From the NCBI GenBank assembly GCA_964016885.1, contig OZ024743.1:290656001-290720000 (forward strand): a stretch of DNA of 64,000 bases. Reading direction: 5' to 3'. Below are positions 8,832 to 28,843 of the stretch, piece after piece. Numbering within the stretch: the stretch's first letter is position 1; each line of letters starts with the position of its first letter. The translations under genes were made by a program, and so were the position numbers. The stretch is from Eledone cirrhosa (Eukaryota). The notes beneath the pieces were generated by a model that saw only the letters and a list, made by a program, of their open reading frames with translations, searched no databases and was not told the DNA's origin.

Positions 8832-8866
8832 TTTTAAGGTTTCGGACACTAGTCTTTCATCAGAAA
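8832..8866 (-). ncRNA. Degenerate minimal type-I hammerhead ribozyme (family E)
   Basis: Minus strand reads ttt CTGATGA aa gac tagt gtc c GAAA cc TTA aaa. Confidence 0.6.
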
Positions 8867-9349
8867 TAGAAGATAAATAGAAAGTAAGGAGTGATAGGAA
8901 GAGGAAACGGGGAAAATTAGAAAGAAAATTGGTAGAATAAAAACACACGTGCTTATTCAGTGGGCCATATTGGGGAGTGGCTGATCAAGTGGTACATTAT
9001 TTTTCTTTTCTTTTTTTACTATTACTTTGAGGTGGGGATGTTTATATATTTATTCTAACCCTGAAGCTGTTACATGCAAACGCTTTGCCGGAGGAAGATT
9101 TGCAAGGGACGGGTTTTCTTAAAGACTAAAAGTTGGTAGCAAGAAACATTTGATAACTTAGCTTAGTTTCTAAATCATTTTGGGATTTATAAGCACCCGT
9201 GGTAAAATCAAATGTGCCTTCTTGTAAATTGACATTAGTAAGATTAGTGTTTATCTCTATTCGGTACTTGCGGGATTTATCTATGTGATATTCAATTTCC
9301 TGGTCGCTGATATGGCCAAACAAACCGGAGAACTCTATATCCTTTGTTA

Positions 9350-9645
9350 ATAATTGTTTCTACTATTGACACAAGGCCAGCAATTACCTAGTACATTACT
9401 GGTACTTTATTTTATCGACCCCGTAAGGATGAAATGCAAAGCTAACCTCTTTTGTTAATAAATGGTTCTACTTTTGGCACAAGGACAGCAATTACCCAGT
9501 GTATTACGGGTACTTTATTTTATCGACCCCGTACGGATGGAAAGCAAAGTTACCCTCGGCGGGATTTGAACTCATATCATAAAGGGCTCTTTGCTGCAAA
9601 GCATGGCGTCCGACCCTCTACCGATACTGCCAATCCACCGCCTCT
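9350..9645 (-). mobile_element. Two tandem Deu/Nin tRNA-SINE copies (truncated 9350-9449; full-length ~9460-9643)
   Basis: The full copy shows an A box (TGGCAGTATCGG) and B box (GAGTTCAAATCC) on the - strand. The tttgttaataa target sequence occurs at 9343, 9451 and 9646. Confidence 0.88.
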
Positions 9646-12600
9646 TTTGTTAATAATGATCTGGTGATAGAAGTTTAAAATATATTATGTAGAATTGTGT
9701 AAATCTAGCCTTATTTTCCTGTGCGATATTACTGGATTACCATATCACAGAAGTATTGATCCACTGTAATAAGCTGGTATTGTTCTTCATACGTATATTT
9801 ATTTTTCTAAGTATTTCCTTACTTGTTAATCATATTTCTGTTCTAGTGGGGTTAAGTAATCTACATATATATTTGTCAATAATGTCTTATTTATGGTCTC
9901 TCAATGAGATATGAATATTACGTTTAACTAGGTTTGAGTTGTTTTATCTACTTTTAATTTACTAGCGATATGTTTTGCTTCATATAGGTATTTGTTTTAG
10001 CTATCTAGTTATTGGAAGTGCTATATATAATTTATTTTCTTCATATACATTGTTAGTTTTGTCAGCGCACATGATAGTTGTCAAGCGTATATTTAGTTAG
10101 GAAATGGTTTTATACATACGGAACTTGACATCGTTGGTCATATGTACGTAATAAGTCAGTTTTTAGGAAGGTTTTCGTCAATTTTAGCAATTACTCTCTG
10201 TCTACGGACGTCTTCCCTTCTGTGTGCATTCTAGTGTAATTAGAATTGTTATTATTTTACTGGAGTAATCGACCTTATATAATTCCTTCTTGTTGTGTTC
10301 GTGTATTTACTCAGTATTGTACTTCATCTGTCAAACAGAGTACTCTACTACTTCATGGGTGAATATAAATTATATTAAATGAATCACATTTTATAGGCTA
10401 TTAACATTAAATGTTCCTTCTTTTCGTAGCTATTACTTCGCATGCAGCAAAATAATTGTTTCAAGACGATATCGATTAGCTTGCACACACGATATATTCT
10501 ATATTCCGATAATAGTTACGACTATTTCAATAACTGCTGGGTCAACCAGACATGAACTGGGAGTCACTGAAGAAGAAAGCGTAGAATTCAGAATTTTATT
10601 ATTGATTGGGACTTTGTCTCAGAGTAGGAACTGGAAGAATATAGCGTGTTACCTTATTTTGTTTCGGAATTTTATAATCGCTATTGCGTGGTGAGTGAAT
10701 GTGTATGGTTTATGTTTTCTCATGGTAACTGTTTCACAATTGTAAGAGCGTACTCGATCTTTAGTTATGGCAGCGTGTTGTGCTCTTGGGCATGACACTG
10801 GTTACCTCATTGGTTCATTCCATTAGGCATGAAATAAATACAAAATGCAGTTATTGTTAACATTTCAACGGACTGATAGAAGATATATTTTTAGCCTAAT
10901 GTCTACAAAACAGGGAAAATTTGCGAGAATTGAATTGTGACGCGCGGATAAGCTAGCCAGCAGTTATATGTGATTATGGACATGCATTTGTACAGGTCAA
11001 GTGCATGGATTTATGGGTACTCTCCTCGCACACCTCTCCTATCCGTTTCTTTAATTTTCAGAAACTTTCCAACTATTTAAGCTAGATATTTGCATATATA
11101 TGTGCGCATGTATTTTTGCATTTGAGAGGTATAACAATCTCCATTCCCCTGTACAGATTTATTCTTTGTTTCTTAAATTCTAGACTGACGTAGATCATGT
11201 GTAATTACGTGGGAATGACATGTACATGGGCGTAGAAAATCAAGATACGAAAATCTATCGGTAAGAGTAATATAGCTTTCCCTTCTTGTTCGTGTGTGTA
11301 TGTGTTAAGGCGTTCGCGTGTTTAGGTCTAAATACCACCGACGAAAATATTCCTTTCATACCTACGGATTCAATCAAATCTAGAGCAACAGGCTACTGGA
11401 TCATGCAACATACGCTGCTTGACGCAATTAAGCTATTTAGTGCTTCTCACATCCATTAAATTTAGCGGACCGACCACATCCACACACTCACACACACACG
11501 GTCGCGATAATATATGTGTATATATATATTTATATATAGGTTCTATTTATATATATATATATAGGTTTTATCTTTATTTAAATATATATATATATATATA
11601 TATATATATATATATATATATATATATATAGGTTTTATTTTTATACATATATGTACCATTATCAAAATCGTAGGAATATATATGGATATTTAATAACATA
11701 TCAAAAATGTACTCTTTAAAAAATAATCTTTCTTATTTACCCAGTTGAAATATTCATAAGGAAAATAATATCATGTAGTTAAAGAATTCTGAATTGCAAA
11801 ATCTTCAGCGTGTAGAAAACAAACGAAAGCCATTGTTATATTACAAAGCTTGCATTAGTTAAACAATTTGAAAACAAAGTATTCAAATATAGTTTGACAT
11901 TTAAAGCGTCTCAGCTGTTTACTGAAATAATCTGACAACTAAAGAGGCAATCATTGAAATGTTCAAATGATTTATTGGCAGATTTCTGACGAGTATATTT
12001 GAGGATTTATCATTTCATTATTATATATATTTGCCTCCAGCAATTCCATTTCACATAGTATAGAAATAAATACACAATTACTGCGGCATAAGCAAGTCAA
12101 TTTCTAATTAAATCAAAGCACAAACCTACTAACTACAAGAATAAATGTTATATAGAAAATGAACAATGAAATATGAAATACATCAACACACCATATTTGA
12201 GAATATAAGATAATCAAATGTAGAAAGTTATACATAGATAGCCAATGATGTTTGCACTCAAATCTATTCAGTTTGTCAATTAAATCTCTCCCAAATCACA
12301 CGCTAATAATTACAGAACTAAATCCGTGTATATGCAATAACTATATCTCCACCTCTAATGGAAGGCATGCACATAGAACATGACAAGAACATCATAACCT
12401 ATTAAACGCGTTTCCCTACCTCTACCTAAATATTCACATATCTGCGATCTGTTCTGTGTTATACATTTGTTCAAGATCCACTTATTTTTTAACAAACAAA
12501 CATACACACAAACATTCAAATGGATTAACTAATGGATAACAAACCTGGATACAATAAGCAAAAGCGGTTTACATTATGCGTATATTCTATCATAGGCGTG

Positions 12601-13291
12601 GTATCTCGTGGTTGATGTAGAAACGGCGTTAAATACTTCAATGATAAACGAATGCCAGAAATGCACTTGCATATTTATGGCAAGCTTACATCTTTAGTTC
12701 ATGATTCAAGACAGTTTGTGACATCATGAAGTGTAATGGACATGAACAGATTTTAAAATTTTATTTAGTAATCCTTACTGGGTTACGGCAAAATATAAAT
12801 AAAGAATTTATTCGGAGGTGGCCTGTCCAACATTTACTACGACAAAAACGGCCTATTTTATTAATATATATATAGAGAGAGAGAATGAAAGAGAGAGTAT
12901 ATAGAGAAGGATATATGAAAAATGGAGTGATGTTCGATACAAATCGAAAATTATACATTTAAAATAAAAGTGGAACTACACTGAAGTGTATCTAAAGTAT
13001 ATTTCATTCTTTATTCCAACAAAAGAATAGTTTTATACCTATTTTTTTTTTTTAAATAACGTAGTTTTATCAATATTTTTATTGTTACGACAATCTTTTA
13101 AAATAATAATTAATTTTTGTATTAGAAAATGCTGCCATCATATTTTCAGACCAGATATATATGCACACGCACACACACACAGAGGCACACACACACACAC
13201 ACACACGACACACACAGACACACGGAAACACACACACGCACACACATATAGGTGTATATATATATATATATATATATATATATATATATAT

Positions 13292-13500
13292 ACGTTATTC
13301 CGGGTTGAATCGGAGGTAACCACAGTAAGTAAGGTACTCAATACATAGCAGAGTATAAAAGTTTTAATATAGATGAGATTCTACAGGACTAGAACTGTTT
13401 CATTCATTAGAAATCATCAGGAATCTCATGATAGATTCCTGATGATTTCTAATGAATGAAACAGTTCTAGTCCTGTAGAATCTCATCTATATTAAAACTT
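13292..13500. repeat. Palindromic PLE pLTR-like cassette (family A) with 68-bp perfect inverted arms
   Basis: 13359-13426 is the exact reverse complement of 13433-13500, with a 6-nt spacer (catgat). 13292-13426 is the reverse complement of ~14391-14522. Confidence 0.9.
13433..13483 (+). ncRNA. Type-I hammerhead ribozyme (family A); mirror copy on - strand at ~13373-13429
   Basis: Stem I agattc/gaatct, CTGATGA core, stem II t-ttc(taat)gaa-t, GAAA, stem III acag/ctgt, predicted cleavage GUA after 13477. Confidence 0.85.
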
Positions 13501-27879: not shown

Positions 27880-28190
27880 GAATACACTACTAAAACTCTG
27901 TGATCGCTTGCTTGCTTGCTAGTCTTTAATGTAATACAGACAAAAGACTGCATAATGGGAAAACACTTTGAATGAAAGTTGACTCTGAAATGCGAATACA
28001 AATGGACTATAACAAGTATCAAGTAAGTCGGTACACGTGTTCCCGACATAAGGGGTTTTTTCGGGTACCTTCATACACAGAGAGATAGGGAAAGATATAG
28101 AGAAAGAGATAGTGGTTGTGAAAGAGGGACCTAGAGAGAGGGAGAAAGGTTGAGAAGGAGAACGGAAGGCAGAGAGATGGTGGTCTTGTT
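27880..28190 (-). repeat. Unclassified (CAAG)n-ended repeat, copy 2
   Basis: Reverse complement of 34778-35078. Confidence 0.75.
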
Positions 28191-28271
28191 GTGTGTGTAT
28201 ATATATATAAATATATCTATATATTATTCAGAATATTATAAATGAAGATATTCACATATTCGAAATATATG

Positions 28272-28333
28272 TTTTATTATATATATTTCGAAGGTACTAT
28301 GCTGTTTTTTCAGTACGTCCTCGTCAGATAAAA
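28272..28333 (-). ncRNA. Minimal type-I hammerhead ribozyme (family F)
   Basis: Minus strand reads ttttat CTGACGA ggacgtact(gaaaaaacagcat)agtaccttc GAAA tatata TA ataaaa; 6-bp stem I and palindromic loop III. Confidence 0.85.
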
Positions 28334-28540
28334 TACATGAATTGATGTATGTCATACCTCAACGGTCTTCATGGTTCAATTCCAGTATTGGCAGTGGTCC
28401 GGCTGGTGGTCTTGTGTGTATATATATTATATATATATATATAGACTTTGAGTTCATGTTGGTTGTATACCAACACCTCAGTATGCAGGCTCGAGCACTC
28501 AACGAAGTGCGCAGGTTGGTTTGGTTACTCCGGAGTAGTG

Positions 28541-28843
28541 TAAAATAAAGTTAAATAAAAGTCAAATGATTAAAATTTAGCTTCGTTTATTACTTATATA
28601 TATTTCAGTGACAGCCATCTTTGGCTGTGACCTCTTCAGGCAGTTTGAATTAGTATGGTATAGACAAGTACATATGTTGTTTAGGTGTATGATATTGTCA
28701 ATACTCTGATATGCCCTTGTCTATACCATACTAATTCAAACTGCCTGAAGAGGTCACAGCCAAAGATGGCTGTCACTGAAATATATATAAGTAATAAACG
28801 AAGCTAGATTTTAATCATTTGACTTTTATTTAACTTTATTTTA
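28541..28843. repeat. Fold-back cassette (family D): 128-bp inverted arms, each with an HHR core
   Basis: 28541-28668 versus 28716-28843 with one mismatch and a 47-nt spacer. CTGAAGA ggtcacagcc(aaagat)ggctgtcact GAAA tatataTA starts at 28745. Confidence 0.88.

Follow-up and report, generated by a model that had tools for sequence, protein, structure and literature searches.

Minimal type-I hammerhead ribozymes (HHRs) are known from the pseudo-long terminal repeats (pLTRs) of Penelope-like elements (PLEs) and from non-LTR retrozymes, which are defined as tandem non-coding units of 150-450 bp with a type-I HHR in each. For the entry of animal retrozymes into DNA, the literature names PLEs as likely partners and describes the mechanism as yet to be elucidated. 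Arguments for mobilisation by PLEs have been drawn from the ribozymes that the two share, from their co-occurrence and from the phylogeny of pLTRs (Cervera and de la Peña 2020, PMC7229834; Li, Clavereau and Pollet 2026, bioRxiv 10.64898/2026.07.22.740005), and the 2026 preprint reports pLTR kinship for 24 of 57 Xenopus retrozyme families. In the present study, we analysed 64,000 nucleotides of Eledone cirrhosa (GCA_964016885.1, contig OZ024743.1, positions 290,656,001 to 290,720,000 of the forward strand; this whole stretch is called the window, and positions count from its first letter). Fourteen hammerhead motifs of six families, A to F, lie in its 8.8-28.9 kb part, and because they include inverted pairs and tandem units they reduce to about ten insertions. 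We consider it very probable that these are insertions into TA microsatellites in which five families are 5'-truncated PLE ends and the sixth, family B, is a non-coding retrozyme likely copied by the same enzymes.

The described insertion pattern of PLEs is an inverted arm together with a one-sided tail. Frangieh et al. (2024, PMC11167929) trace this pattern to two internal start sites of reverse transcriptase (RT), used once both strands of AT-rich DNA have been nicked, and treat it as unique to PLEs. The elements at the Eledone locus share with PAc, a Poseidon PLE of Anolis treated in that paper, the signs of AT-rich nicking on both strands and of two RT start sites giving a tail, and the ends of family C likewise lie within the first codons of its open reading frame (ORF). 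They differ from PAc in belonging to another clade, in being known here from genomic ends alone and in extending the pattern to a non-coding element. In addition, an HHR and a preference for (TA)n are recorded for Hydra-1_Obim of Octopus bimaculoides in the supplement of Craig et al. (2021, PMC8557442). In the available text, the word "tail" does not occur in the 2026 preprint, nor "inverted" in PMC7229834. Our literature search, which left bioRxiv supplements, Repbase and Dfam aside, returned no report of PLE-tailed retrozymes or of octopus retrozymes.

Insertion ends of family B and of the PLE families

Family B has a tandem unit of 424-463 bp that is low in GC, has a longest frame of 62 amino acids (aa) and carries a type-I HHR with a short palindromic stem III in every copy. 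It is a non-LTR retrozyme, the only such family of the six. A low-GC tandem non-coding unit with one type-I HHR each, a range from monomers to long multimers and co-occurrence with PLEs are all shared with the metazoan non-LTR retrozymes described in PMC7229834 and the 2026 preprint. Arrays of 6, 11 or more, and 14 cores were found, and 24 cores lay in 3 of 40 random windows; the flanks were limited to 3-kb loci, and longer arrays are under-sampled. In the window, a plus-strand copy of about 1.7 units (14986-15790; HHRs at 14993, with a predicted cut after 15023, and 15457) runs at its distal 3' end, of the type called s2 below, into (TA)n. A minus-strand copy (15862-16541; HHRs at 16111 and 16529) runs at its proximal 3' end, of type s1, into (TA)n. 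The minus copy is 84-88% identical to the plus arm and is a separate insertion into the same TA tract.

Among the B blocks of the retrieved genomic loci, the 3' ends are strongly concentrated: 65 of 73 fall at two sites, s1 and s2, about 55 nt apart, and 58 of these 65 lie beside (TA)n, in an end map that leaves out blocks at locus edges (including one scored s1/s1) and counts one place twice. Among 22 two-armed blocks, 18 have one arm ending at each site, four have an unclassified end and none is symmetric; all five two-armed blocks from random windows are asymmetric. A block of 6.1 kb (L139/L140), with an s2 end on one side and an s1 end on the other, consists of an inverted and a direct arm in which all 12 compared 424-bp units are 100% identical, and in a separate 463-bp array the same is true of all five units.

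The same arrangement was observed in the PLE families. In A, C, D and E, each family shows two fixed ends, both downstream of the predicted cut and both with (TA)n behind them, and the head-to-head pairs have one arm per fixed end (8/8 in A, 7/7 in D and 9/9 in E, overlapping loci counted). Three pairs in the window have such asymmetric arm ends. The first, of family A, was found by self-alignment and the strict descriptor between TA tracts at 13294-13499: its minus arm (13294-13426), with an intact HHR at 13420 and a predicted cut after 13382, stops at the distal end, and its plus arm (13433-13499), with an intact HHR at 13439 and a predicted cut after 13477, at the proximal end. The second, of family C (25455-25881, by self-alignment), also has one arm per 3' end, a minus arm at 25455-25698 with a truncated HHR at 25695 and a plus arm at 25691-25881. 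The third, of family D (28444-28843), is made of the pLTR of a Hydra-type PLE; its minus arm (HHR 28639) stops at the distal end and its plus arm (HHR 28745) at the proximal end. The inverted arm and tail pattern was not seen for family F. The earlier proposal that the elements insert at TA microsatellites is borne out. Priming at two sites by a PLE would mean that even short insertions leave a ribozyme, often twice.

The described metazoan retrozymes differ from family B in that B carries this PLE footprint of TA target, inverted arm and two fixed ends. That B ends as PLE insertions do supports a PLE-mediated insertion of the retrozyme. In the mechanism that we propose, the first steps are taken from the biochemistry of PAc (PMC11167929): the PLE GIY-YIG endonuclease would nick both strands of AT-rich DNA, and the RT would start at two internal RNA sites, one per strand. 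Most cDNAs would end after 100-400 nt, so that nearly each insertion would keep its ribozyme, often twice and head-to-head, and the TA tract would persist on both sides and then be hit again. The hammerheads of family B RNA, acting as dimers via ACUAGU, would cut it into single units, these would likely circularise, and an RT rounding one circle would fill both arms with arrays of identical units. We give an even chance to the full scenario, in which a PLE RT-endonuclease primes at two fixed sites of circular B RNA, one per nicked strand of the TA tract, and rolls round it, so that one event makes a multi-kb two-armed array of identical units.

An alternative is that family B is a satellite-like repeat derived from a PLE end that grows by local unequal crossover, with no insertion of multimers. 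This is one scenario in the Discussion of the 2026 preprint, and identical units within arrays would also be expected from homogenisation. However, B is dispersed over many chromosomes (636 first-look candidates), both arms of the 6.1-kb block are identical between one s2 and one s1 end, and crossover would not produce the fixed paired ends found at TA tracts in 18 of the 22 two-armed blocks. Thus, we regard this alternative as highly unlikely. A second alternative keeps the PLE machinery and lets it insert B from a long, linear, uncleaved multimer, with hammerhead and circles playing no part. All of the 3' ends of family B lie downstream of the predicted cut site, and the template would therefore have been either uncleaved or circular; moreover, PAc uses unprocessed RNA and its ribozyme mutants insert normally in vitro (PMC11167929). 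On the other hand, the core boxes of B are kept and its stems covary across subfamilies, each array has its own uniform unit, and the predicted monomer adopts a fold in which stem I holds the two ends together (z -8.6, partly from TA palindromes). A linear template thus appears doubtful to us, with some real chance of being correct.

Several points weigh against the reading of family B as a PLE-inserted retrozyme, and of the other families as PLE ends. First, outside TA-rich sequence the pLTR ends of A, C, D, E and F do not match the B unit, and no parent of B was found among them. Second, the median identity of units is 0.945 within arrays vs. 0.906 between them, and pairs with an identity of at least 0.99 make up 27% within arrays vs. 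1.4% between, such that only young arrays are highly alike; the 100% identity of units could partly come from assembly polishing or from a homogeneous donor array. Third, s1 edges the TA-rich spacer of B itself, and some ends may be misclassified. Fourth, the two B arms of the window stand tail-to-tail rather than head-to-head, and a TA tract is missing at the 5' end of the plus arm. In addition, the ORF link of family D comes from one locus, the ORF of family F is a mere remnant, and the covariation counts include related sequences and are hence inflated. The finding that cleavage by the PAc ribozyme is dispensable for insertion in vitro (PMC11167929) counts on the same side.

Three further observations concern B-like sequences. 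A search of sequence runs for the B dimer listed no RNA data set that contains it; it covered three runs presumed to be RNA, in which the contigs contained TA spacer only, and a fourth run of unknown kind, in which B-like pieces occurred, and no conclusion was drawn from either. At L171/L172 (joined 16300-18650), there is a second retrozyme-like array with a 310-bp unit and an A-like hammerhead, in which five direct units and an inverted arm end in (TA)n. At L282:3188-3967, a two-armed B array directly adjoins, with no TA tract between them, the 5' portion of an ORF of family A; this single case is an insertion or else a template switch by the RT.

Open reading frames behind families A, C, D, E and F

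The first-pass annotation had described the ribozyme-bearing elements as mostly non-coding. Elsewhere in the genome, copies of A, C, D, E and F extend into PLE ORFs and B alone is non-coding, and the description was therefore wrong. In copy L083, the family A end is followed by the start of the ORF. A search with the family A protein gave 92 scored matches, many with an open frame of 758 aa, and an HHR lies 175 nt before the ATG of the intact 758-aa frame. A second HHR follows 5.8-6.0 kb downstream in all three long loci (L309, L310 and L311), where the paired HHRs are 5800-5966 nt apart and pLTRs flank the ORF; the pLTRs are 99.7% and 98.7% identical in two of these loci, and the third is 5'-truncated. 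The 3' untranslated region (UTR) of these three copies is 3.5-3.7 kb long and consists to 73-76% of alternating TA/TG. Family A thus both targets and carries microsatellite-like DNA. In the window, its 3' end (3' UTR and pLTR, 14134-14522, plus strand, HHR at 14396) is 69-86% identical to the full-length copies L309 and L311, and the TA/TG tract upstream of it, at 13700-14130, may be family A's own carried 3' UTR.

A motif scan of the family A protein revealed DKT, CxCX5C and CxxC..E..N..CxH, with RWR in place of RWK, and neither GxKF nor CCHH. Families D and E share the C-terminal motif of A, and E has CxSX5C. By the motif definition of PMC8557442, with the references compared by eye, A is assigned to the Hydra clade, as are D and E by their C-terminus; an initial label of "Neptune" for family A was replaced after the motif test. 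The Hydra-clade PLEs of that paper likewise combine a C-terminal GIY-YIG, DKT, CxCX5C and CxxC/CxH with the absence of CCHH, and likewise have a canonical HHR, a (TA)n preference and an inverted 5'-truncated arm with a tail. In contrast to them, family A has a different ribozyme sequence and clear pLTRs, and it measures about 6 kb where Hydra elements are "generally <3 kb", a length that is due to its long TA/TG-rich 3' UTR. The tails of A, D and E are also longer, at about 65-100 nt vs. 30-40 nt in the Hydra clade.

A Hydra-type GIY-YIG remnant precedes the pLTR end of family E by 1.24-1.26 kb at three loci (L121, L255 and L256), and the pLTR end of D lies 1.29 kb behind a GIY-YIG C-terminus at the single locus L116. 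The window copy of E, again a pLTR end (28200-28396, minus strand), has an intact HHR at 28327 with a predicted cut after 28278. Family C has frames of 1155-1287 aa with YxDD, a CX4CxxC linker and GIY-YIG; a CX2-5CxxC linker and two cysteines inside GIY-YIG fit either Neptune or Nematis, which these motifs do not separate. Before the RT, the ORF of C (L306 and L307) contains an asparagine-rich low-complexity stretch of about 165 aa. The family C insertion at 26095-26799 (plus strand) is a 5'-truncated PLE comprising a GIY-YIG remnant (26095-26467), a 3' UTR and an HHR at 26749 with a predicted cut after 26782; it matches Pfam GIY-YIG with an E value of 1.7e-4, just below the cut-off, shares 79% of its aa with L202 and is 86% identical in DNA over 713 nt to copy L037. 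Another pLTR end of C, with a damaged HHR at 27634, occupies 27389-27711 on the minus strand, and between TA tracts at 18370-18442 a relative of family C is represented by an isolated piece of its tail.

Family F comprises copies that are 72-82% identical (1328 first-look candidates). Most of them start near one point, whereas in longer ones a CA-rich UTR leads to a broken GIY-YIG C-terminus, which is reached upstream in L332, L378 and L380. A fixed-length short interspersed element (SINE) with a set 5' end, which 13 copies had suggested, was rejected because of these longer copies. The window copy of F (8724-8994, minus strand, minimal HHR at 8863) is old and 5'-truncated, and represents the pLTR end of a degenerate PLE. 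A AANATGGC motif stands upstream of the ribozyme in both F (8975-8990, minus strand) and C (26694-26704, plus strand), and many F copies begin at it; we take it to resemble a YY1 site.

In A and C, a single ORF encodes the RT together with GIY-YIG at the C-terminus, and the Atlas look-alikes of both are HTH_animal/GIY-YIG/RVT clusters (0.96-0.98). A Pfam search with the PLE proteins did not recognise the RT and found GIY-YIG only below the cut-off, and a PDB sequence search with the family A protein gave nothing under an E value of 0.08. Remnants of PLE RT and GIY-YIG had previously been placed at 9-10 kb and 26 kb. The GIY-YIG at 26.1-26.5 kb is confirmed, as is an RT fragment at 9.69-9.93 kb, where no GIY-YIG is found. 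This RT fragment (9686-9931, minus strand) is an old Hydra-type piece with stops, hit by the protein of family A in tblastn (E value 9e-6, 33% over 78 aa) and with DNA matches of 66-73% genome-wide; upstream of other F copies it is absent, and a link to family F was not supported. The idea that the insertions borrow PLE enzymes holds in so far as they would depend on PLE RT and GIY-YIG, and fails in naming the local remnants as the source: the 9.7-kb fragment is dead, and the 26-kb piece is the body of the same insertion as HHR 26749. Any enzyme would come from intact PLE copies elsewhere in the genome.

Hammerhead motifs and their density in the genome

All 13 HHR cores of the first-pass annotation, with their CUGANGA...GAAA boxes, are present, and homology detected a partial 14th at 25695 on the minus strand. 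The first bases of the core boxes lie at 13439, 14396, 14993, 15457, 26749 and 28745 on the plus strand and at 8863, 13420, 16111, 16529, 27634, 28327 and 28639 on the minus strand. Judged against genome copies, 5 of the 14 are intact (13420, 13439, 14993, 26749 and 28327), 16111 is near-intact with a single stem-I mismatch, and 8 are damaged: 8863 in stems III and I, 14396 by a mutated core box, 15457 by a change of GAAA to GAAT, 16529 by a deletion in stem II, 25695 by truncation of the core, 27634 in stems I and III, and 28639 and 28745 by a 2-nt loss in stem I common to both. The HHR families have members that are intact elsewhere in the genome.

To what extent could these motifs be chance matches in AT-rich, low-complexity DNA? 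An Rfam search of the whole window found no hammerhead model among 142 matches at E<=10, which were TA-driven miRNA noise only, and more than half of the copies are damaged. However, a strict type-I descriptor (exact boxes, an NUH site and a stem I of at least 4 pairs) finds 5 motifs between 8.8 and 28.9 kb, whereas in 200 block dinucleotide shuffles its mean is 0.02 and its maximum 2, and no shuffle reaches 5. In 40 random windows it finds 70 motifs, vs. 0-3 per 0.8 Mb in 8 shuffles, and the families are conserved with compensatory pairs. A chance origin, to which we assign next to no probability, is excluded by the shuffles.

Self-alignment grouped the motifs into families A (13420, 13439, 14396), B (14993, 15457, 16111, 16529), C (25695, 26749, 27634), D (28639, 28745), E (28327) and F (8863), which show no alignment to each other outside the ribozyme. 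The count of six families thus stands, but to call them unrelated was too strong, since A, D and E share a PLE clade. The motifs are, as had been proposed, type-I HHRs of the PLE and retrozyme kind, whereas a minimal palindromic stem III is not found in all of them: A, with a stem III of 4 bp and an 8-nt loop, and C differ. Cofolding of stem III alone gave dimer helices for A, B, D/E and F and none for C (AGAACU). Like the pLTR hammerheads reported by Cervera and de la Peña (2014, PMC4209133), those of this genome occur as dispersed single motifs from truncated PLEs and as opposite-strand pairs 100-700 bp apart, with an unpaired base before stem II and a palindromic stem III.

The stems also point to selection on HHR structure. 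Among 60 distinct D/E-type sequences, which were picked by core and flank with no pairing filter, 8 of the 9 stem II positions are paired in 83-100%, through several kinds of pair. Position 4 is mismatched in 55 of the 60 (C-C in 44 and C-U in 11), for example in 28327 and 28745; one literature search returned no report of this mismatch, and a tertiary or protein contact is possible. In family B and in a B-like family, stem I is retained while its pairs change, with G-U in B replaced by U-G and A-U. Minimal PLE ribozymes cleave poorly in vitro, and that of PAc needs protein (PMC11167929).

The locus had been presented as a hammerhead hotspot, that is, a true, specially targeted concentration of ribozymes in mostly non-coding elements. 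As background (the contig is 379 Mb long and the genome 3.0 Gb), 40 random 20-kb windows were sampled across 21 large contigs in proportion to their approximate sizes. Their strict motifs extrapolate to 2.6x10^5 genome-wide (bootstrap 1.2-4.6x10^5), or 1.8x10^5 without one array-rich window. Counted by homology with damaged copies included, the random windows hold a mean of 2.6 and a median of 1 motifs and at most 5 families each; at least 13 motifs occur in 1 of 40 and at least 8 in 3 of 40. The chosen 20 kb, with 14 motifs and 6 families, therefore lies in the upper tail, exceeding 39 of the 40 random windows in motifs and all 40 in families. However, its limits were set after the motifs had been seen, the homology library is enriched for the window's own families, and five of the six families are ORF-linked. 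In fixed bins, the window has 8 and 6 motifs and the 60 kb upstream has 7, 5 and 9. A special hotspot is poorly supported given motifs that are dense genome-wide, and we judge it very improbable. The locus is ordinary for this genome; its HHR motifs are real, the kinds of element are known and a special hotspot is not borne out.

The expected enrichment next to TA tracts was recovered. In the window, 13 of the 14 cores lie less than 200 nt from a (TA)6+ tract vs. 36% of the background, and in the random windows 67% of 75 motifs have a tract no more than 200 nt away vs. 33% of random positions (p 3e-8), with the number of motifs correlated with that of TA tracts (rho 0.50). The cores had been said to abut the tracts; most are in fact 60-196 nt away, and it is the element end that touches the tract. 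As noted earlier, the motifs stop before 29 kb: none lies beyond 28745, and 40-64 kb has 0, because long interspersed elements (LINEs) with few TA tracts fill the window there. Several broken LINEs with Pfam RVT_1 were recognised at 19854-25400, 29300-34450 and 47000-64000.

Neighbouring repeats and the meaning of the locus

Other repeats were also observed in the window. A common repeat end at 13576-13702 runs into (TA)n, forms inverted pairs (L125) and occurs in 9 of 80 random 10-kb pieces; a hammerhead was not found in the window piece. At 630-1555, a 595-bp unit in partial tandem (331-bp direct repeats, 99.7%) ends in (TA)n and has relatives in six loci, with inverted arms in L310. A hammerhead and a tRNA were looked for in it and not found, and it is perhaps another PLE-type non-coding element. 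A 377-bp inverted repeat that is 92.6% identical and resembles a miniature inverted-repeat transposable element lies at 7668-8612. One abundant SINE-like repeat has copies at 2672-2786, 4691-4873, 9340-9633, 39192-39458 and 58894-59074, of which the one at 9.3-9.6 kb breaks up the region beside the RT remnant.

HHRs have been counted in the thousands in Schistosoma, coelacanth and Xenopus, and axolotl has up to 120,000 retrozyme copies; the approximately 2x10^5 strict motifs estimated for this genome compare with the published counts only roughly, since the descriptors differ. Among cephalopods, the giant squid genome paper lists 235 Rfam hammerheads, and a 2026 repeat annotation of Octopus vulgaris lists 31 recently active Penelope-like families, with ribozymes unmentioned.

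The two lasting points of this analysis are the PLE footprint on a retrozyme and the genome-wide HHR load. Family B adds anatomical evidence for the PLE route of retrozymes into DNA, namely two fixed ends, one per arm, at a TA target. Intact Hydra- and C-type ORFs in the same genome make a testable RNA-enzyme pair with family B, and, if our reading is true, about 10^5 hammerheads together with intact PLEs would make this genome a direct in-vitro test of retrozyme insertion. Finally, the high microsatellite content of the genome may in part be accounted for by some 2x10^5 HHR motifs missed by Rfam and by PLEs for which TA/TG microsatellite is at once target and cargo.

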